From Dictyostelium discoideum (taxonomy: Eukaryota): a stretch of 64,000 bases of DNA. Under the pieces are notes generated by a model. That model saw nothing but the letters and a program-made list of their open reading frames with translations, ran no database searches and was not told the origin of the DNA. Below, piece after piece: positions 4,572-57,867 of this stretch (position 1 is its first letter; every line of letters begins with the position of its first letter). The translations under genes were made by a program, and so were the position numbers. Location of the stretch: contig CM000152.2 of NCBI GenBank assembly GCA_000004695.1, forward strand, positions 2,048,001 to 2,112,000. Direction: 5' to 3'.

Positions 4572-4898
4572 TATTTAAAAAAAAAAAAAAAATTTCTTTA
4601 GTAAAAAAGAAAATTTTTAAAATTTTGAAAAAAACGAAAGAATAAAAAAATAAAATAAAAAAAATCACAAATTAGAATAATTATTGATTATTGATTAAAT
4701 TTAATTATTACAATTGTTTTTACTATTTTTAATAATAATTTAATTTAGTTTTAGCAATTTTATTATGTATTGTGAGAGAGTGGAATATTGAAAAATAAAA
4801 TAAAAATAAAAAAAAACAAAAAAAAAAAAATAAAAAAAAGAAAATAATAAGAAAAAAAAAAAAAATTAAAAAAAATAAAAAAAAAAAATAAAAAAATA

Positions 4899-4940
<42 letters not shown>

Positions 4941-5032
4941 TTTGTAAATAATAATTCCCAAAAAAAAAAAAAAATAAAATTAAATAAAAAAAAAAAGGTG
5001 TGTAATTTAACATTCGTTGACTCACCAAGCAG

Positions 5033-14828: not shown

Positions 14829-14974
14829 ATTTTTTTAAGTCCTATTTAATTTTGTTTATTATTTTTTTATCATTTTTTTTGTTTTGTTTTATTTTTTTCA
14901 TTTTTTTTTTTTTTTTTATTATTATTTATTTTAAATTTTTAAAATAATTTTCATTGGAAAAAAAAAACCATACA

Positions 14975-17900
14975 ATGACCAAAGGAGGTAAAAAACCAAC
15001 AGCTCATAAAAAGGTTGTATCAACATTTACAATTCAAGAGCCAGAAGAATTCAAAGATAACACTAGAGAATTAAAAGCTGAAGCTGAAAGAGTTAGACAA
15101 GAAGGATTTAGAAAGATTAAAGAAGAGAAATTACAAAAGGAACAAGCTTTAATCAGAGAAAAGCAAGAGGCTGAAGCAAAGAAAAAATTAGAAGAACAAG
15201 AGAAATTAGAACAAGAACAAAAGAAAAAACAACAAGAAGAAGAGGATAAAAAAAGAAAACAACAAGAAGAAGAGGATAAAATAAAACAACAACAATTGAA
15301 AAAAGAGGAAAAAGAAAAAGAAAAAGCTGCTGCTGCCAATCCAAAATCCTCAAAACTTGATAATAAAAAAGAGGTTGAAGAATCTAAAGTTGTTGAAATT
15401 TCAACTCAACCAACTACCACTACCACCACCACCACCAATCAAGTAAACAACAATAGCAATAATAATAATAATAATGATATTTCATCACCATCAACTCAAT
15501 TAAAGAAACAAAATGGTAAAAAAGTAGTAAAAAGAAAACATAGTACTCAATTAAGTGGATTTGAAATTAGTGAACCATCAAGTTTCGATGATGAACAATT
15601 CAAAATCGATAATGAGGATGTTATTAGATTAAGAACAAAATTCATTAAAGTTACAAAACCAAAGAAAAATAAAAAGAACGCAAGTAAATCTGGTTCACCA
15701 GCAATCATTTCATCAAATACTACTTCAGAATCTGTAACACCACAAAATTTTGCTCAAGAAAATTCTCCACCAACTACAACTCCAGCCACAACTCAAACTC
15801 AAGTAACTGAAAAACCAAAACAACAAGAAGAAGAAAAAGAGGAAGGAGAAAAAGAAGAACCAAAACCAGTTGTTCCAGAAATTAAAAAAATTGGAATTAA
15901 ATCATCACCAAAAGCTGAACAAAAACCACATTATACTATTCCAAAAAAGAATAAACAACAACAACAACCACCAAAACCAACAACCAATGAAGCTAAACCA
16001 GCTGGTGAAACTAAAAAATCAACTGGTAAAAAATCACCAAAACAATCAATAACTAAAAATAAATCTGCTACTTTCACAATTATTGAACCATCATTTGGTA
16101 TTCAAGCTCCCTCATCAAATACTACAACCGCTACTCCAGTTGAAGATTCATCTTCAAAAACTGTTGATTCAACTACTACAACAACCACAACAACCTCTAC
16201 TGCAACCAAAACACCAGCTAAACCAACTCCAACTCAATCTAAAAAGAAACAAAATAAAAAGAAACCATCAACTACAAATAAATCAGATGATGATATTGAG
16301 GGACTTTTAAAACAAATTAATGATCCAAAACAAAGAAAAGTCAAACAACCAACCACTACCGCCACTCCAGTAGTTTCCAAAGAAGATGAAGCTAAAAAAC
16401 AAAAAGCTGCACAAGAATCTGCTGAGAAAAAGAAATTGACTGATCAAAACAAAAAGGAAGCTCAAGAACAAGAAAAGTTAAGAGTTGCTGAAGCTAAAAA
16501 AGTTGCTGATGCAAAAAAAGCTGCCGATGCTGAGGAATCAAAGAAAGCTGCCGATGCCAAGAAAGCTGCTGATGCAGAAGCAAAGAAAGCTGCAGAAGCA
16601 AAGAAAGCTGCTGATGCAGAAGCAAAGAAAGCTGCTGATGCCAAGAAAGCTGCTGCTGATGAAGAAGAAGCAAAGAAAGCTGCTGATGCCAAAAAAGCTG
16701 CCGATGCCAAGAAGGCTGCTGATGAGGAAGAAGCAAAGAAAGCTGCTGATGCCAAGAAAGTTGCTGATGCAGAAGCAAAGAAAGCTGCTGATGCTAAGAA
16801 AGCTGCTGATGAAGAAGAAGCAAAGAAAGCTGCTGATGCAAAGAAAGCTGCTGAAGAAGAAGAAGCAAAGAAAGCTGCTGATATCAAGAAAGCTGCAGAA
16901 GATGCCAAAAAAGCAGAAGATGCCAAAAAAGCAGAAGATGCCAAAAAAGCAGAGGAGGATAGATTAGAAGCAGAGGCAGAAAAGAAAAGATTAGCAGAAG
17001 AACAAGCAAAGAAAGAGGCAGATGCAAAGAAAGCAGAGGAGGATAGATTAGCAGCCGAAGCAGAAAAGAAAAGATTAGAAGGGGAACAAGCAAAGAGAGC
17101 AGAAGAAGATAGATTAGCAGCTGAAGCAGAAAAGAAAAGATTAGCAGATGAAGCAGAAAAGAAAAGATTAGCAGATGAAGCAGAAAAGAAAGAGGCTGAA
17201 GGAAAGAAAGCAGAAGAAGATAGATTAGCAGCTGAAGCAGAAAAGAAAAGATTAGCAGATGAAGAGGCAGAAAAGAAAGCAGCAGAATCAAAGAAATTAG
17301 CTGAAGAAGAAGAAAAGAAAGCAGTAGAGGCCAAAAGATTAGCAGATGAAGAAGAAGAAAAGAGAGCAGCAGAATCAAAGAAATTAGCTGATGAAGAACA
17401 AGCAAAGAAAGCAGCACAAGAAGAAGAAGAGAAAAAGAAATTAGAAGAAGAAGAAGAAAAGAAGAAAGCTGCTTCTGAGCAAGCTGAACAAAAACAAGTT
17501 GCTGAAGATTCTGATAAAAAGAAAGCAGACGAAGCAGAAATTCGTCCATTATCTCATCCAACCCTTTCAAGACCATCTAAAAAATCATCATCGTCATTAA
17601 AGTTAAATAGAGTTGAAACTGAATCAGAGGTCGAAGCATCAAAATCTGAAGAAACCAAAGAAGAGGAAAAACCAGAACCAGAAGAGGAAAAACCAAAAGT
17701 AGAATATAAACCTGATTTTAAACCAGTTGGAGGTATTGATATTTTTGGTGGTGCCAAAATCAATCCAGCCGAAGTTGTTTTAAAGAAAACTACCTCTTCA
17801 AGTAATATCATTGAACATACACCAGCACCAGCACCAGAAGAACAAGGTACATTTAATTTCCGTTCAGTTTTAAAGAATTCAAAATCCAGTGAAAAATTAT

Positions 17901-18277
17901 CCGAATTTGCAAATGGCGGATCTACCACCTCCTCAACAACTACTACACCTTCAACAGGTACTCCAGTTAAACCAACCTTATCAAAATCACCATCTGTTGT
18001 AAATAATAAATCAACCACCTCAATTCCAATTCCAACTTCCTCACCAGTTATTTCCCCAGCTGCTGTTACCTCTATGCCATCAGAAGCTGTTGGAACTTAT
18101 ACTTATGATGAATTAAAGAATTTCAAAACCAATGGTATCAATGTTGATCCAAGTAAATTAGAAATCTATTTAAGTGATGAAGAATTTACAAAGGTTTTAG
18201 GTATGTCCCGTACTGAATACATTAAATTACCAGCATGGAAACAAAAAAATAAGAAACAAGATGCTAAACTCTTTTAA
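14975..18277 (+). CDS. Large charged repeat protein with a C-terminal villin-headpiece (VHP) domain and no gelsolin repeats.
   Basis: The first ATG is at 14975; the track's 14954 start is a TTG. The C-terminus YTYDELKNFKTNG...LEIYLSDEEFTKVLGMSRTEYIKLPAWKQKNKKQDAKLF matches the villin headpiece consensus (LSDEDF..VFGM.R..F..LP.WKQ..LKK..GLF). The centre holds about 20 tandem AKKAADA-type heptads followed by about 8 AEEDRLAAEAEKKRL-type units (coiled-coil-like), and the N-terminus is basic and K/E-rich. Single exon. Confidence 0.8.
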   Translation: MTKGGKKPTAHKKVVSTFTIQEPEEFKDNTRELKAEAERVRQEGFRKIKEEKLQKEQALIREKQEAEAKKKLEEQEKLEQEQKKKQQEEEDKKRKQQEEEDKIKQQQLKKEEKEKEKAAAANPKSSKLDNKKEVEESKVVEISTQPTTTTTTTTNQVNNNSNNNNNNDISSPSTQLKKQNGKKVVKRKHSTQLSGFEISEPSSFDDEQFKIDNEDVIRLRTKFIKVTKPKKNKKNASKSGSPAIISSNTTSESVTPQNFAQENSPPTTTPATTQTQVTEKPKQQEEEKEEGEKEEPKPVVPEIKKIGIKSSPKAEQKPHYTIPKKNKQQQQPPKPTTNEAKPAGETKKSTGKKSPKQSITKNKSATFTIIEPSFGIQAPSSNTTTATPVEDSSSKTVDSTTTTTTTTSTATKTPAKPTPTQSKKKQNKKKPSTTNKSDDDIEGLLKQINDPKQRKVKQPTTTATPVVSKEDEAKKQKAAQESAEKKKLTDQNKKEAQEQEKLRVAEAKKVADAKKAADAEESKKAADAKKAADAEAKKAAEAKKAADAEAKKAADAKKAAADEEEAKKAADAKKAADAKKAADEEEAKKAADAKKVADAEAKKAADAKKAADEEEAKKAADAKKAAEEEEAKKAADIKKAAEDAKKAEDAKKAEDAKKAEEDRLEAEAEKKRLAEEQAKKEADAKKAEEDRLAAEAEKKRLEGEQAKRAEEDRLAAEAEKKRLADEAEKKRLADEAEKKEAEGKKAEEDRLAAEAEKKRLADEEAEKKAAESKKLAEEEEKKAVEAKRLADEEEEKRAAESKKLADEEQAKKAAQEEEEKKKLEEEEEKKKAASEQAEQKQVAEDSDKKKADEAEIRPLSHPTLSRPSKKSSSSLKLNRVETESEVEASKSEETKEEEKPEPEEEKPKVEYKPDFKPVGGIDIFGGAKINPAEVVLKKTTSSSNIIEHTPAPAPEEQGTFNFRSVLKNSKSSEKLSEFANGGSTTSSTTTTPSTGTPVKPTLSKSPSVVNNKSTTSIPIPTSSPVISPAAVTSMPSEAVGTYTYDELKNFKTNGINVDPSKLEIYLSDEEFTKVLGMSRTEYIKLPAWKQKNKKQDAKLF
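16485..17340 (+). repeat. In-frame coding tandem repeats (21-bp KKAADA(E) units, then 45-bp EEDRLAAEAEKKRLA units) inside the VHP gene.
   Basis: Periodic gctgatgccaagaaagctgct and gaagatagattagcagctgaagcagaaaagaaaagatta units are visible. They generate the spurious antisense ORFs 16462..17334, 16494..16778 and 16884..17576. Confidence 0.9.
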
Positions 18278-18555: not shown

Positions 18556-18559
<4 letters not shown>

Positions 18560-19352
18560 TTTTTAACAATTTGAATTACATCTTCATCCTCTAAAGCATG
18601 AGAAATACCAACACGTTGAGGACAATGTTTTGCACTAACACCCCAAACAATGCCATATTTAAATTGAGAAACCAATTCCTTATGTAAAAATCTACAAATA
18701 TCCTCCATTGTTGCACCTTCTCTAAGAATGATTGCATCATTAAAATCTGGTGAAGCACCTCTTAATTTTGTGTAAACACGTACTAAATTTAAGTAATCCC
18801 AAATTTTATCTAATAAGAAATCCAAGTTCAAATTCATATTACAACTAATTACAACTGAATTTGGTTGTCTTGATAATCTATCAACATCTTCCATTGACAT
18901 ATGATCCATTTTATTATAAACCTTTAATAAATAAAAAATAAAAAATAAAAAAATTTATTAATTTCATAAATTAAATAATTAAAAAATAATAAATAATAAT
19001 TATAAATAATAATAATAATAATAATATAACTTTAACATACATAAAGACATCTAATATATGAACGTCTACCTTCAATTGCATCAATTAATTCATCAACAGT
19101 TGGATCACAACGTATAACTAAATCACAATTAAAAATTTTATATTCATGTAAAATTGATTTTGCTAACTTCTCTGTGATTTTTGTAAGGGTTTGAGTTGCT
19201 GTTAAATTTACACCACCTGCACTCTTTAATTTAAAATATATATTTGGTGGTTGTGAATTTAAACGAATACCAATTGATTCTAACTCTTCTTGTAATAATC
19301 TTTTTTGAATTTCACCTTTATTTGCATCTAACATCATTAAAATTAAATCCTT

Positions 19353-19392
<40 letters not shown>

Positions 19393-19929
19393 TTAATAAT
19401 TTATTATAGATTTATTTTACTATTTTATTTTTATTTTTTAACTTTAGATATATATACATATATATATGTATATATAATTTTTTTTTTTATTTTTTATAAA
19501 AATACTTACAGCAGTTCTTGCAACAGCAATAACTTGTCTACCTCTACCTCTACCTTGAGAAGCACCTTCAATAATACCTGGAGTATCTAATAATTGAATT
19601 CTTGCACCTTTATGTTGAATTACACCAGGAATACAAGTAAGTGTAGTGAATTCATAGGCTGCAGCCAATGATTTTGTCTCTGTAAGTTTAGTTAAGATTG
19701 TACTTTTACCAACTGATGGGAAACCAATTAAAGCAACTCTAGCATCACCTGATTTTAATACTTCAAAACCATCACCACCTTTACCAGATGATTTTGGTGG
19801 ATCTAAAAGTTGTTGTCTTAAACGTGCTAACTTTGCTTTAAGTAAACCTAAATGATACTCTGTTGCTTTATTCTTTTGTGTACGAGACATTTCTGCCTCA
19901 ATATCTTTAATTTTTTCTAAAATACCCAT
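18556..19929 (-). CDS. drg2: Developmentally regulated GTP-binding protein 2 (DRG2; Obg-family GTPase with TGS domain). Structure is complement(join(18556..18921,19041..19349,19510..19929)).
   Basis: Exon 1 ([35 protein letters not shown]...GFPSVGKST...DTPGIIEGA...[10 protein letters not shown]) is near-identical to the human DRG2 N-terminus. GTAAGT and GTATGT donors and AAG/AAAG acceptors give in-frame junctions: ...ARTA|DLILMMLDA... and ...CLY|[16 protein letters not shown].... The C-terminal TGS region is ([35 protein letters not shown]). The total of 364 aa equals the human DRG2 length. Confidence 0.9.
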
Positions 19930-20741
19930 TTTTTTTTTTATTTATTTATTATTAATAATAATAATATTTATATATATATTTACAAAATAAAAAAAAAAAA
20001 GAAAAAAAAAATTAAAAGTAAAACAAAAACGCGAGAAAAAGGAAATTAAAAATAAAAAAAAAAACTTTAAAAAAAAGTGAAAATTATTGATGAATTTTTT
20101 TTTTTTTTTTTTTTTTGTGAATATAAAATTTCAATCCCACCACTGTCTAAAAATTATCATCCCAAACCAATGCATAATGAATCTAAATTATTTTGAAGTC
20201 CTGCATTGAATTACCAAAATAATAGTACTTTAGAAATATCTTAAATTTCTAACTTTGTATCAATATAATCCTCTTTTATTCATCAAAAACAAATAATAAT
20301 TGCCCACAATGACTTAGTTTCACAACCAATTTTTTTTCGTTGTTTTTTTTTTCGTTGTTTTTTTTTTTTTTTGGAAAATGTGGTTAACCTTTTTTGGGAA
20401 AAAAATAAAAACAAAAGACAAACCCAAATAAACTTTTTATTTTTTTTTACTTTCTTTTAAAGTTAATGCTATATGAAAATAACAAAAAGTAATACAAATT
20501 TCAAAAATTTCCTGATCTTGTTTGAATTACAAACTTTATTCAGTGATATCATTAAAATTTTTACCAAGACTTGAAATATTAAACTAAAAAAAAAAATAAA
20601 AAAAAGAAAGTGATCACAAAATTAATAATAAATAATTTTAAAATTTACTCTTGTAATTTTAATGGGAATAAACAAACACCAAGACCATTTTTGTACTGGA
20701 TAATAAACCTATATGTTCTAATTAAATTTCAAAGTAAAATT

Positions 20742-20779
<38 letters not shown>

Positions 20780-21006
20780 AATGACCAAAGATCAAGTTTA
20801 AATCATAAATTATTACACAAACACACAAACCAAATGGAAAAAATAAAAATAATGAATTTTTATTATTTGTTTTTTTATTTTGTTTTTAGTAAACTATTTA
20901 TTAACAGTGTCTTTTATTGATAAAAATAGTTAATACTTGACACAATATTATTTGTTGAATATCGTTTATTATTTCCACAAAAAAAAAAAAAAAAAAAAAA
21001 AATAAT

Positions 21007-22390
21007 TTAATTATTTACATCCGAGTTTAAACTTTTGATTAAACTGTCACTAAAAAGATCCCATTCTTTACCTGATTTTAAATTTTCATTATTTTTATCA
21101 TTATTATTTTTGAAGTTACTACTACTACTACTAATACAACTACTATCGTTATTATTATTATTTTTATTATTATTGATAGTGCTATTCTGATTTTTTAATA
21201 AACCTTCATCTTCATTGTCAATATTATTTTCTAAATCTCCGACATTATTATTATTTTTGTTATTATTATTTTTATTATTATTATTATTATTATTATTGTT
21301 ATTATTACTACTATTTTCATTATTTAATAAACTTTCAACACCTTCATTATCAATATTAACTTCTAAATCATTTATATTAGTTTTGTTATTTCTTTTATTA
21401 TTATTACTGTTATTATTATTTGAACTACGTAAAGTCTTTTTCTTATAGAAAAAGAAACAAATTAATAAAATTAAAATTGAACAACCAAAAACTGATAAAG
21501 AAATGATTATTATTTTCCAAGGTTTCATATTTGAATGTAGTGTAAAACTAACGATGTTGGTATTATTATTACCCCAAACCATTGCTTCAACAGATATCTT
21601 TCCAAAAAATCTTGGTACTACTAATACACTAACTAATCCATCAGCATCTGTTATATTTCTAATTGAAGTCATATAACTTGGATAGAAATATGCATTACCT
21701 GAAGTAATTGAAAATCCAATTATTACACCACCAATTGGTTCATCATCATCATTAACACTATCATCATCATTATTATTACCATAAATTTCTTTAGTTTTAT
21801 TTAATCTATTATTATTTTTATTATTATAATTTGTTGAATTACCATTAATCGACAGAGTTGCATTTTTATTAGTTTTGAGTGATAAAACTAAAGGATGTCT
21901 AAATTGATTTTCTTCAGTTGCTTTTTGAAAATTACCATTTACAATTGAAAGTTTTAATGGTGAATTATCACTATTCGAGGTTTTACAATTTTCAATTTTA
22001 GCAAAACCAATTCTTGAATTACCACGATCATAAATTACATTATAACCTTGTAACACAACATCACCAATCAACACTGAAATCTCTTTCATATGTGAAATAC
22101 CAAAACAATGTAAATTATTAATCTTTAAAAAGTATAATGATGGTGGTATAGCCAATTTAAAACTACCACTAGCACCACTTCCATCCAACTCTAAATAGAT
22201 TGTAGGATAAAGTTCAACTGATTCTTCTGATAAATAATGACAATTACCTTCCCAAAATTTATCTTCTCCTATACCTGGTAATTTTGAATAACTTTGTTCT
22301 AAATTTTTTATAATACTATAAAATATTTCATCATTAAAATATAATAATGTTGTACCACTATCAACTATATTAAGTAAATTGTTAGTAACA

Positions 22391-22426
<36 letters not shown>

Positions 22427-23742
22427 TTTTTAAAAATTTTAAAAATATATTTACCAATTGAAGATATGAAATCATTTGGAGTGAATTTTAATGATTCATT
22501 TTCAACATAAATATTTAAAACATGAATTGAATAATAATGAAAATCAATGATTGGTGTATATTTTGGAGTTTCAATATTGACTCTTTCATTAATACCACCA
22601 ATTGTTAATATACCACCATCTTTACCTAAACACATTGAAAATACATTTGGTATACCATATGAACTAACAATTTTTGAAAATATATCATCACCATTACTAA
22701 ATTTTTTTTAAAAAAAAAAAAAAAAATAATTGATATTAATAATTTAGTTTTTTTATATTATTTTATAAAATTTTAATACAAACTATGGATCTAATTCTTG
22801 AAATGATAAACCTAAAATACCATCTCTAACAGCTTGAGATCTTGCATTTGAAGGACAAGTTAATTGTGAAAATGAGAGTGATTCCTTTTGAATATTACCA
22901 AATTTAGCAGGTACAGTAAATTGACCAATAGTGACATTATCAATAACTAAAGAACCCGCTATGAAACTACCATCACCATATTTTAACATGAATGGGCAAT
23001 TATCGTGATTTTTATTTTGACAACTATTGTTACAAACCGATGCTGAACAATTTAGAGCTATACCTGATACACTATCATCGAAATTATAAAGTCCATCTAA
23101 ATTACCATCGGAACAACTACAAGAGGTTTTAATGGTTTGAGATTTATAAAGATAACAATTTAAACCTGGTACTGCTAATGATGTACTACCAGTATCAACT
23201 TGAACTGTAAACATTTGAGGTGGTGTTCCAACTAATATTGGTATAAAATATTCAAATGATGATGTTATACCTCCATATAATATTGATGATGATGAAATTG
23301 ATTCTTTAAAAAGATATGAATTATTATTTTTATAATCATAATCACTTTTTAATTTTAAATGATTATATATTTTTTTTTTATTATTATTATTATTACTATT
23401 ACTACTACTATTACTACTACTACCACTACCACTACTACTACTATTGTTATTATCATTAATTTGTAATTTACTATTATTTATTAAATTATTATTATTATTA
23501 TTATTATTATTATTTTGAATGTTTAAATATTCATTTTTATTATTATAATTTTTATTTATTAAAGTATGAATATGTTGATGAGAGAATATTTTGTTATTTA
23601 TTGGACTACTTATTATTAATTCATTTGTTTCTGGGTGATATAGATTTATATGTTTATTTCTTCTAATTATTTCTATTGAGTTTGATAATGTGGAATGAGG
23701 AAAAAGTGAACAAATTAAAAACAATACTACTATTATTTTCAT
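21007..23742 (-). CDS. Pepsin-like (A1) aspartic protease with a signal peptide, a C-terminal transmembrane anchor and an N/K-rich cytoplasmic tail. Approximate structure is complement(join(21007..22364,22455..22696,22785..23742)).
   Basis: The signal peptide is MKIIVVLFLICSLFPHSTLS. The first catalytic motif is VQVDTGSTSLAVP, with flap-like YGDGS. The protein contiguity SFQELDP[Y]SNGDDIFSK...FSMCLGKDGGILTIGG implies an 87-bp intron, apparently with a weak GTTTGT donor. A second intron (GTAAAT...ATATAG, 22365..22454) restores the second catalytic motif ISSIVDSGTTLLY. After the protease fold there is a long Asn-rich spacer, a hydrophobic TM segment IIIISLSVFGCSILILLICFFFY, then a poly-N/K tail. 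Confidence 0.8.
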
Positions 23743-56076: not shown

Positions 56077-56522
56077 TTATAATTTTTTTTTTTTAATTTT
56101 AATTATTTTTATTTTTTTTCTTATTTTATTTTTTATTTTTTTTTTTATTATTATTTTTAATTTTTTTTTATTATTTTTATTATTTTTTATACATTAATTT
56201 TTTTTTAAAAAAAAATTATTTAATTTAAATTAACAAAGATTTTGGCGCACAGATTTCAACAAAGATTTTTTTATTAATCAATTCCACATGATTCAATAAA
56301 GGGGGTAAGAAAATCTAATATATTTGAAAATACCGAATGGAAAAAAAGATATTTTTAATAAAAACTTTTTTTTTTTAAAACTAATTTTTTTATTTTTCTT
56401 TTTATTTTTCTTTTTTTTTTTTTTTTTTAAATTTTTTAAATTTTTTTTCCATTGCCCAAACTATTAAATAATTTTTTTTTTTTTTTGGTTTTTCAATTGT
56501 CACCTGACTTACATAAAAGAAA

Positions 56523-57867
56523 ATGAAATTACTTATTTTAACTTTATTTTTAGCTACTATTGTTTTAGCTCAAGCTTTAACGTAAATATTAAGATTTATT
56601 ACTTTAATATATAATATTTTCAAACAAACAATCAAAAAAAAATAAAAATAAAAATAAAAAATAAAATAAAATAAAAAAATAATTATAATAATAATAATAA
56701 TAAAAGAATAATAAAAAAAAATAAAATAAAAAAATAAAAAAATAAATATTAATAATAAATTTTAATTAAAATAGAGTACCATTAAACTTCCATCAAGCTT
56801 CAAGAGAATCTAGAAGAAGAGTTCCACAAAAATGGTCAAACAGATTATCTGCTCTCAATGCTGGTACCACAATCCCAATTTCAGATTTTGAAGATGCTCA
56901 ATACTATGGTGCCATTACCATTGGTACCCCAGGTCAAGCCTTCAAAGTAGTTTTCGATACTGGTTCATCCAACTTGTGGATTCCATCAAAGAAATGTCCA
57001 ATCACTGTTGTTGCATGTGATTTACATAACAAATATAACAGCGGTGCCTCAAGCACATATGTCGCCAACGGAACTGATTTCACCATCCAATACGGTAGTG
57101 GTGCTATGTCAGGTTTTGTCTCTCAAGATTCCGTCACTGTTGGTTCATTAACTGTTAAAGATCAATTATTCGCTGAAGCCACTGCCGAACCAGGTATTGC
57201 TTTCGATTTCGCCAAATTCGATGGTATTTTAGGTCTTGCTTTCCAATCCATCTCTGTTAATTCAATTCCACCAGTCTTTTACAACATGTTATCACAAGGT
57301 TTAGTTTCATCAACACTCTTCTCCTTCTGGTTATCAAGAACTCCAGGTGCCAACGGTGGTGAACTCTCATTCGGTTCAATCGATAACACCAAATACACTG
57401 GTGACATTACCTACGTCCCATTAACCAACGAAACCTATTGGGAATTCGTTATGGATGACTTTGCTATCGATGGTCAATCAGCTGGTTTCTGTGGTACTAC
57501 TTGTCACGCAATTTGCGATTCAGGTACATCACTCATTGCTGGTCCAATGGCTGATATTACTGCCCTCAATGAAAAATTAGGTGCTGTCATCTTAAATGGT
57601 GAAGGTGTCTTCTCTGATTGTAGCGTTATCAACACCTTACCAAATGTTACCATCACCGTTGCTGGTCGTGAATTTGTTTTAACTCCAAAAGAATACGTTT
57701 TAGAAGTTACTGAGTTCGGAAAGACTGAATGTTTGAGTGGATTTATGGGTATCGAGTTAAACATGGGAAATTTCTGGATCCTTGGTGATGTTTTCATCTC
57801 TGCTTACTATACTGTATTCGATTTTGGTAATAAACAAGTTGGTTTCGCAACTGCCATTCAAGGTTAA
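56523..57867 (+). CDS. ctsD: Cathepsin D (lysosomal pepsin-family aspartic protease) preproenzyme. Structure is join(56523..56581,56775..57867).
   Basis: Exon 1 encodes the signal peptide MKLLILTLFLATIVLAQAL-T and ends at a GTAAAT donor at 56582. The acceptor is AAAATAG at 56774. Exon 2 encodes a propeptide, then ...DAQYYGAITIGTPGQAFKVVFDTGSSNLWIPSKKC...IQYGSGAMSGF...FDGILGLAF...AICDSGTSLIAGP...FWILGDVFISAYYTVFDFGNKQVGFATAIQG. Both catalytic motifs are present (DTGS and DSGT). The total of 383 aa matches my memory of Dictyostelium cathepsin D. Confidence 0.9.

Follow-up and report, generated by a model that had tools for sequence, protein, structure and literature searches.

A predicted membrane-anchored aspartic protease with an invasin-type immunoglobulin-like domain, encoded by DDB_G0279453 of Dictyostelium discoideum

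Does Dictyostelium discoideum encode a membrane-anchored aspartic protease comparable to BACE, and what would be the function of such an enzyme? This question is raised by DDB_G0279453, a gene on the minus strand of a 64,000-nucleotide (nt) stretch of contig CM000152.2, here called the window, which is extremely AT-rich and contains short introns and coding tracts of poly-Asn. The gene is already catalogued but uncharacterized. Its product of 864 amino acids (aa; XP_641634.1, UniProt Q54WT3) is labelled "Peptidase A1 domain-containing protein", and no paper mentioning DDB_G0279453 or Q54WT3 was found in the searchable literature. Likewise, no A1 protease carrying a Big_1 domain, and no layout combining A1, Big_1 and a transmembrane (TM) helix, was found described there. 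The protein is probably a type-I membrane protease that carries out limited proteolysis in post-Golgi or endocytic membranes and uses an immunoglobulin (Ig)-like domain as a spacer.

The three exons listed in Table 1 join to an in-frame coding sequence of 2559 nt, encoding 852 aa. This product is identical to the AX4 reference protein over aa 1-849, so both introns, including the weak GTTTGT donor of intron 1, are those of the reference annotation. A first-pass annotation of the window, which had proposed these two introns and pointed out the weak donor, was therefore correct in both respects. Exon 1 codes for the signal peptide, the N-lobe with its DTGS motif and, between them, a low-complexity pro-region; it is identical to the AX4 model, and intron 2 is spliced identically in the independent annotation KAM9949331. 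The terminal TA of exon 1 and the G of intron 1 form an in-frame TAG across the junction. Both this TAG and the donor (CCATA/GTTTGT) are kept in D. citrinum (locus L001, ~4873..5030), and no alternative in-frame GT donor of D. discoideum retains the conserved residues LSFQELDP. The D. purpureum orthologue is a single intronless open reading frame (ORF) of 2454 nt with the same architecture (GL870979.1, L002 4001..6454). Both exon junctions (LSFQELDP/Y/NGDDIF and FISSI/V/DSGTT) align to it without gaps, the former being paired with LSFQQLDPDNGDDIF of D. purpureum. The orthologue without introns in D. purpureum and those with at least two in D. discoideum and D. citrinum indicate that introns were gained or lost within the genus.

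Two newer D. discoideum assemblies break the gene at intron 1 into proteins of 313-319 aa and 512 aa (KAM9949332 with 319 aa together with KAM9949331 with 512 aa, and KAM9963396). For D. citrinum, the annotated donor is GTCATT, located 24 nt upstream, by which the eight conserved residues LSFQELDP are lost. These split or mis-spliced annotations look like errors due to the weakness of the GTTTGT donor. It is barely conceivable that the annotated pair reflects two real genes, one for a 319-aa N-lobe protein and one for a 512-aa protein with C-lobe and TM helix. The separate entries KAM9949332 and KAM9949331, the non-consensus donor and the TAG across the junction would agree with two genes and an artefactual joined model, but a lone half of the pepsin fold is no functional unit, and the spliced junction aligns residue for residue with every orthologue, among them the D. 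purpureum gene. Two separate genes were rejected on the basis of the AX4 model, which joins the exons, and of the intronless D. purpureum gene; in addition, D. citrinum keeps the same donor. The first-pass annotation had also considered that the ORF downstream of the protease might not be spliced in. This cannot occur, since everything from the DSGT motif onward lies in the uninterrupted exon 3 and splicing cannot part C-lobe, Ig-like domain, TM helix and tail.

Table 1. Positions of the features within the window, with protein coordinates of DDB_G0279453 where applicable
Feature	Positions	Strand	Remarks
Exon 1	22784..23742	-	Met1 to first two bases of codon 320; from ORF list and assembly
Intron 1	22697..22783	-	87 nt, phase 2; donor GTTTGT, acceptor TTTAG
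Exon 2	22455..22696	-	aa 320-401, partial codons at both ends; central protease including FSMCLGKDGG
Intron 2	22365..22454	-	90 nt, phase 1; GTAAAT...ATAG
Exon 3	21007..22364	-	single ORF: Val401/DSGT, C-lobe, Ig-like domain, TM helix, tail; TAA 21007..21009
Possible exon 4	20536..20583	-	48 nt, FNISSLGKNFNDITE followed by stop; AX4 reference model only; outside the first-pass coordinates
Signal-peptide-like N-terminus	23683..23742	-	aa 1-20 (MKIIVVLFLICSLFPHSTLS); hydropathy 1.8-1.9
First catalytic motif DTGS	23185..23196	-	aa 183-186; invariant in all aligned homologues
Second catalytic motif DSGT	22351..22362	-	aa 402-405
Nepenthesin-type insert	22996..23049	-	Cys 232, 237, 241, 249 (CX4CX3CX7C), directly before the flap strand
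Big_1 (invasin/intimin-type) Ig-like domain	21517..21984	-	aa 528-683
Asn-rich loop inside Ig-like domain	21739..21870	-	aa ~566-609, 34% Asn, predicted local distance difference test score (pLDDT) <50
Predicted TM helix	21445..21513	-	aa 685-707 (IIIISLSVFGCSILILLICFFFY); Kyte-Doolittle mean up to 2.94
Predicted cytoplasmic tail	21010..21444	-	aa 708-852, 145 aa, 40% Asn
Cathepsin D (ctsD)	~56520..57867	+	exon 1 near 56.52 kb, exon 2 ends at 57867

The protein has a complete A1 protease domain and belongs to the pepsin-like fold. The Pfam profile PF00026 matches aa 164-523 over profile positions 1-314 of 315 (E=2.4e-37; 129.5 bits with a cut-off of 19.9), and the matches to TAXi_N (PF14543; 53.9 bits, cut-off 30) and TAXi_C (PF14541; 45 bits, cut-off 23.9) are both weaker. 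Both catalytic Asp motifs, reported as intact in the first-pass annotation, are invariant in every aligned sequence that covers them. The flap Tyr255, located in KYGDGS, is kept except in the T. lacteum orthologue (P0006) and one protist sequence, which harbor Phe at this position. Among the orthologues whose gene model is complete, D. discoideum included, the psi-loop Gly residues, the flap Tyr and the DTG and DSG motifs are intact. The Acytostelium model (P0038) lacks the DSGTT segment and the N-terminus and is probably incomplete. The signal peptide suggested earlier corresponds to a hydrophobic N-terminus of suitable appearance, with a putative cleavage site, placed by eye, after TLS. It is separated from the protease by a low-complexity pro-region of ~130 aa.

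Two features of the N-lobe are informative for classification. The Cys columns of the nepenthesin-type insert are common to every plant A1B homologue and to almost every protist one, whereas BACE and pepsin-like enzymes show gaps there; an insert of this kind has been described for nepenthesin and plasmepsin V (PMC9478907). Ala190 corresponds to position 39 of pepsin and is aligned with Ala100 of BACE1, while plant A1B and pepsin-like enzymes harbor a Trp. Replacement of Trp39 by Ala was given as a criterion for BACE/memapsin by Kay et al. 2011 (PMC3116508). However, Ala39 is present in all 32 other protist homologues of the alignment and is thus not specific for BACE.

The region following the protease had been described as an Asn-rich stalk within an extension of about 250 residues. 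The extension actually comprises ~325 residues (aa 528-852), and most of the supposed stalk is a folded domain. AlphaFold2 (AF2) models were obtained for the D. purpureum orthologue and for aa 524-687 of D. discoideum. The former shows pLDDT values above 90 for the protease (190-565) and of ~87-97 for an all-beta domain (578-681), which is followed by a helix (684-716). The D. discoideum segment forms a beta-sandwich of the invasin/intimin type with pLDDT above 90, in which the Asn-rich stretch is a loop between two strands. In the orthologue alignments, this insertion, which comprises 44 aa in D. discoideum, is shared with D. citrinum only. The Big_1 profile PF02369 scores only 15.1 bits with the D. 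discoideum domain (E=0.025), and 26.7 and 28.6 bits with the orthologues P0004 and P0005 (E~1e-6), all of which are below the gathering score of 34.9. A profile built from nine sequences of the domain retrieved 5483 proteins at E<=1e-3 among 1.84 billion representatives. Four of five sampled matches are multi-repeat PF02369 proteins, some of them with an Invasin_D3 or autotransporter domain, and the fifth (P0271) matches PF02369 only below the cut-off. From the AF2 beta-sandwich, the PF02369 matches of the orthologues and the profile search we conclude that aa 528-683 form a Big_1-type Ig-like domain. A simple disordered Asn stalk is ruled out by the confident fold and the similarity to Big_1.

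The domain, and with it the whole layout, has been conserved among D. citrinum, D. purpureum, P. violaceum, T. lacteum, Acytostelium and Cavenderia as well as in the environmental sequences P0040 and P0041. The latter two are encoded by intronless environmental or transcriptome contigs of eukaryotes (JGI 3300050365 and SRR6342626, respectively) and combine A1, Big_1, TM helix and a short tail. One environmental tail ends with SSLLSDN and resembles in this respect BACE1, which ends with DISLLK.

Besides the N-terminus, the protein contains one strongly hydrophobic segment, the TM helix, which is present in all orthologues and flanked by conserved MKPWK before and KKK after it. Hydropathy, the AF2 helix in the D. 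purpureum orthologue and the KKK flank point to a type-I membrane topology. The hydrophobic helix and charged tail noted in the first pass thus correspond to a single TM helix and an Asn/Lys-rich tail that is predicted to be cytoplasmic. Within the predicted ectodomain, 14 N-glycosylation sequons are found. A glycosylphosphatidylinositol anchor in place of the TM helix was rejected because the tail of 145 aa has a conserved end (KEWDLFSDSLIKSL), which is shared among Dictyostelium species. The tail sequence EDEGLL fits the pattern [DE]xxxL[LI], and no DxxLL motif was found in the 145 aa. Such tail motifs may act as sorting signals. The tail also carries an internal duplication (DLEVNIDNEGVESLL and DLENNIDNEDEGLL), in which the motif DLExNIDNE..LL occurs twice. 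At the aligned tail position, orthologues from other dictyostelid groups show YEKL or YYKL, and these and the dileucine-like motifs may be interchangeable as sorting signals.

The type-I layout agrees with the resemblance to BACE/memapsin proposed in the first pass, but the protein is not a member of the BACE family. The phylogenetic check proposed there was carried out as a neighbour-joining tree (330 trimmed columns, 200 bootstraps) that covers BACE, plant A1B and protist sequences, but not plasmepsin V, ASP5 or those of oomycetes. In this tree, BACE groups with Lymnaea in a clade of its own with 100% support, and the plant A1B sequences likewise have their own 100% clade. The dictyostelids form a third 100% clade, which is joined with P0040 and P0041 at 58%; deep nodes are unresolved and DDB_G0279453 does not group with BACE. 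In the trimmed columns of the protease domain, the protein shares 30% of its residues with BACE1, 28% with cathepsin E and 25% with the cathepsin D (CtsD) encoded in the window. BACE is the best match of the protein in the PDB by both sequence and fold, and human BACE1 (the sequence used is identical to PDB 6ej3) reaches 101 bits with DDB_G0279453 as compared to 76 bits with a partial CtsD ORF. Cys442 and Cys487 align with C330 and C380 of BACE1, Cys527 aligns with C420, and Cys342 is two columns away from C216. The two retained BACE-type Cys pairs are also present in plant A1B and protist enzymes. In the column alignment no counterpart of the BACE1 pair C278-C443 was found, as Pro393 and Ile616 take these positions. 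A Trp following the flap Tyr (position 80) is absent as well; the sequence reads YGDGSF, with Phe260 invariant in dictyostelids. Tree and column comparison therefore reject a true BACE orthologue, because the nepenthesin insert is present, C278-C443 and the flap-following Trp are missing, and the protein occupies a separate branch. The protein is one of a broad and poorly resolved set of non-pepsin A1 enzymes.

In the proposed mechanism, the order of signal peptide, pro-region, A1 endopeptidase with nepenthesin insert, Big_1 domain, TM helix and cytosolic tail would place the protease and the Ig-like domain toward the lumen or the cell exterior, and the tail with its dileucine-like motifs in the cytosol. 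The two Asp residues would activate a water molecule, as is common to every pepsin-family enzyme. Membrane or lumenal proteins would then undergo limited proteolysis, either processing or ectodomain shedding, in post-Golgi or endocytic membranes. The rigid Ig-like domain would fix the distance of the active site above the bilayer and may aid substrate binding. Enzymatic activity, topology, cellular location, substrates and the role of the Ig-like domain as a spacer are all predicted. Several points weigh against this assignment. The searchable literature contains no expression, activity, localization or substrate data for DDB_G0279453. The tail motifs are short, lie within low-complexity sequence and do not keep their position in every orthologue. 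The exchange of the flap Tyr for Phe in T. lacteum suggests that catalysis may be dispensable in some lineages. The available models disagree on the 3' end of the gene, and a membrane-tethered digestive role in the phagolysosome fits the same anatomy.

The latter would imply bulk degradation of bacteria in phagosomes or lysosomes beside the soluble CtsD, with the membrane anchor serving for retention. In favor of this role, Dictyostelium is known as a professional phagocyte and the protein has a complete catalytic site; the dileucine and YxxPhi-like tail motifs would suit lysosomal targeting too, and an invasin-type Ig-like domain could bind bacterial surfaces. Nevertheless, this role, the main rival to limited proteolysis, is considered less likely, as the membrane-anchored A1 enzymes checked in the literature, BACE and plasmepsin V, are enzymes of limited proteolysis with specific processing functions (PMC3116508, PMC9478907), and the flap-tethered nepenthesin insert has been linked to substrate handling in plasmepsin V (PMC9478907). 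A receptor or adhesion molecule without proteolytic function, in which the A1 fold serves as a peptide-binding module and Big_1 as an adhesin, is highly improbable. The same has been proposed for the inactive oomycete PxAP9, for which the change seen in the T. lacteum flap was discussed (PMC3116508), and both the adhesin-family origin of the Ig-like domain and the long cytosolic tail would be compatible with it. An inactive protein is disfavored by the catalytic residues (DTG and DSG motifs, flap Tyr, psi-loop Gly), which are invariant among the orthologues with complete models, including that of D. discoideum. In a further reading, DDB_G0279453 represents the functional beta-secretase equivalent of Dictyostelium, that is, a sheddase which performs the first cleavage of type-I proteins, including ectopic human deltaN-APP (amyloid precursor protein, APP), ahead of presenilin/gamma-secretase. 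According to two reviews, the Dictyostelium genome encodes no beta-secretase, and cells with human deltaN-APP release the amyloid-beta peptides Abeta40/42 in a presenilin/gamma-secretase-dependent manner (PMC8578527, PMC3352040). Formation of Abeta40/42 without a known beta-secretase implies some sheddase for the first cleavage, and such an enzyme is called for in these reviews. D. discoideum was also listed among the organisms without a BACE-like protein in a survey of BACE evolution (Southan & Hancock 2013; PMC3865767). The BACE-like topology, the rank of BACE as best PDB match, the higher score of human BACE1 with it than with the partial CtsD ORF, Ala39 and two of three BACE Cys pairs in common favor DDB_G0279453 as a candidate. 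Still, the equivalence is rather improbable, because the protein is not a BACE orthologue (27-30% identity to BACE1), the added Ig-like domain would leave a greater distance between active site and membrane than exists in BACE, and the first cut is possible by other proteases.

The 3' end of the gene differs between the two available models. In the AX4 model, splicing occurs after SLNSD at the donor GAT/GTAAAT (21018), and an intron of 435 nt (20584..21018) leads to a possible exon 4. The resulting C-terminus is SDFNISSLGKNFNDITE (864 aa), as opposed to SDVNN ending at 21007 in the read-through version (852 aa). A counterpart of exon 4 was sought in D. citrinum and D. purpureum, where only chance matches were obtained. 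In D. citrinum the next gene begins ~310 bp downstream of the orthologue. The downstream neighbour in the window (18556..19929, minus strand) encodes a GTPase of the DRG type, is interrupted by several introns and is syntenic in D. citrinum; the spacer between it and the protease gene measures ~1.1 kb in D. discoideum compared to ~0.3 kb in D. citrinum. Further along, positions 14954..18277 of the plus strand hold an ORF of 1107 aa with Lys/Glu/Ala repeats (AKKAADAEAKKAADAKK and repeats of EDRLAAEAEKKRL) and a Thr-rich region.

A soluble cathepsin D had been reported at 56.5 kb of the same window. The gene was found there and its product has no TM segment. Exon 1 of ctsD encodes MKLLILTLFLATIVLAQA, and exon 2 extends from DTGSSNLW, which includes Trp39, to GFATAIQG and the stop codon. 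No nepenthesin insert is present in the CtsD sequence either. CtsD and DDB_G0279453 belong to the same Pfam family and both carry a signal peptide. The designation of DDB_G0279453 as a paralogue of CtsD is thus justified at the family level, whereas its protease domain is less similar to CtsD (25% identity) than to BACE1 (30%). Furthermore, CtsD differs in being soluble, in Trp39 and in lacking the nepenthesin insert.

If DDB_G0279453 is indeed the enzyme of the first cut, it would feed substrates to presenilin/gamma-secretase and explain the Abeta40/42 formed from human APP. The pairing of a membrane-anchored A1 sheddase with gamma-secretase would then be older than animals, here with an Ig-domain spacer. 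With a candidate named, the question of the first cut can be addressed by a simple knockout, and the organism is a tractable one. The combination of an A1 protease with nepenthesin insert, a Big_1 domain, a TM helix and a long tail is a variant among the known membrane-anchored aspartic proteases, and it is further evidence for a wide distribution of membrane-anchored non-pepsin A1 proteases among protists. On the practical side, the weak GTTTGT donor is a site at which automated annotations of recent date split or mis-splice the gene.

Among the known systems, BACE1 and BACE2 (memapsin 2 and 1; MEROPS A01.004 and A01.041) resemble DDB_G0279453 in its predicted topology and share with it Ala39 and two of three Cys pairs, but lack its four-Cys nepenthesin insert and its extra N-lobe Cys residues. 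Protease and TM helix are connected by a short linker in BACE, whereas a Big_1 domain of ~155 aa takes this place in DDB_G0279453, and the tail comprises ~24 aa in BACE as compared to 145 aa. Plant A1B enzymes are mostly soluble or possess a very short C-terminal hydrophobic end; they harbor Trp39 and form a separate clade, in contrast to the Ala39, the Big_1 domain and the long tail found here. Of the group of plasmepsin V, Toxoplasma ASP5 and nepenthesin-type (MEROPS A1B) enzymes, the last resemble DDB_G0279453 in the four-Cys insert, as does plasmepsin V according to PMC9478907. The nearest relatives outside the dictyostelids are A1 sequences from red algae, Stygamoeba and environmental samples (32-39% identity), which display the same Ala39 and N-lobe Cys pattern. 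Most of them end in a hydrophobic C-terminal TM helix with a short tail. The red-algal group has a Cys-rich juxtamembrane segment, and Big_1 occurs only in the dictyostelids, P0040 and P0041. BACE-like and plasmepsin V-like membrane A1 enzymes have been reported from oomycetes by Kay et al. 2011 (PMC3116508), and the parallel to the oomycete proteins PxAP8-12 is drawn from that work alone. Finally, the bacterial Big_1 (PF02369) adhesins, such as invasin, intimin and autotransporters, carry this domain in tandem arrays, whereas DDB_G0279453 contains a single copy.

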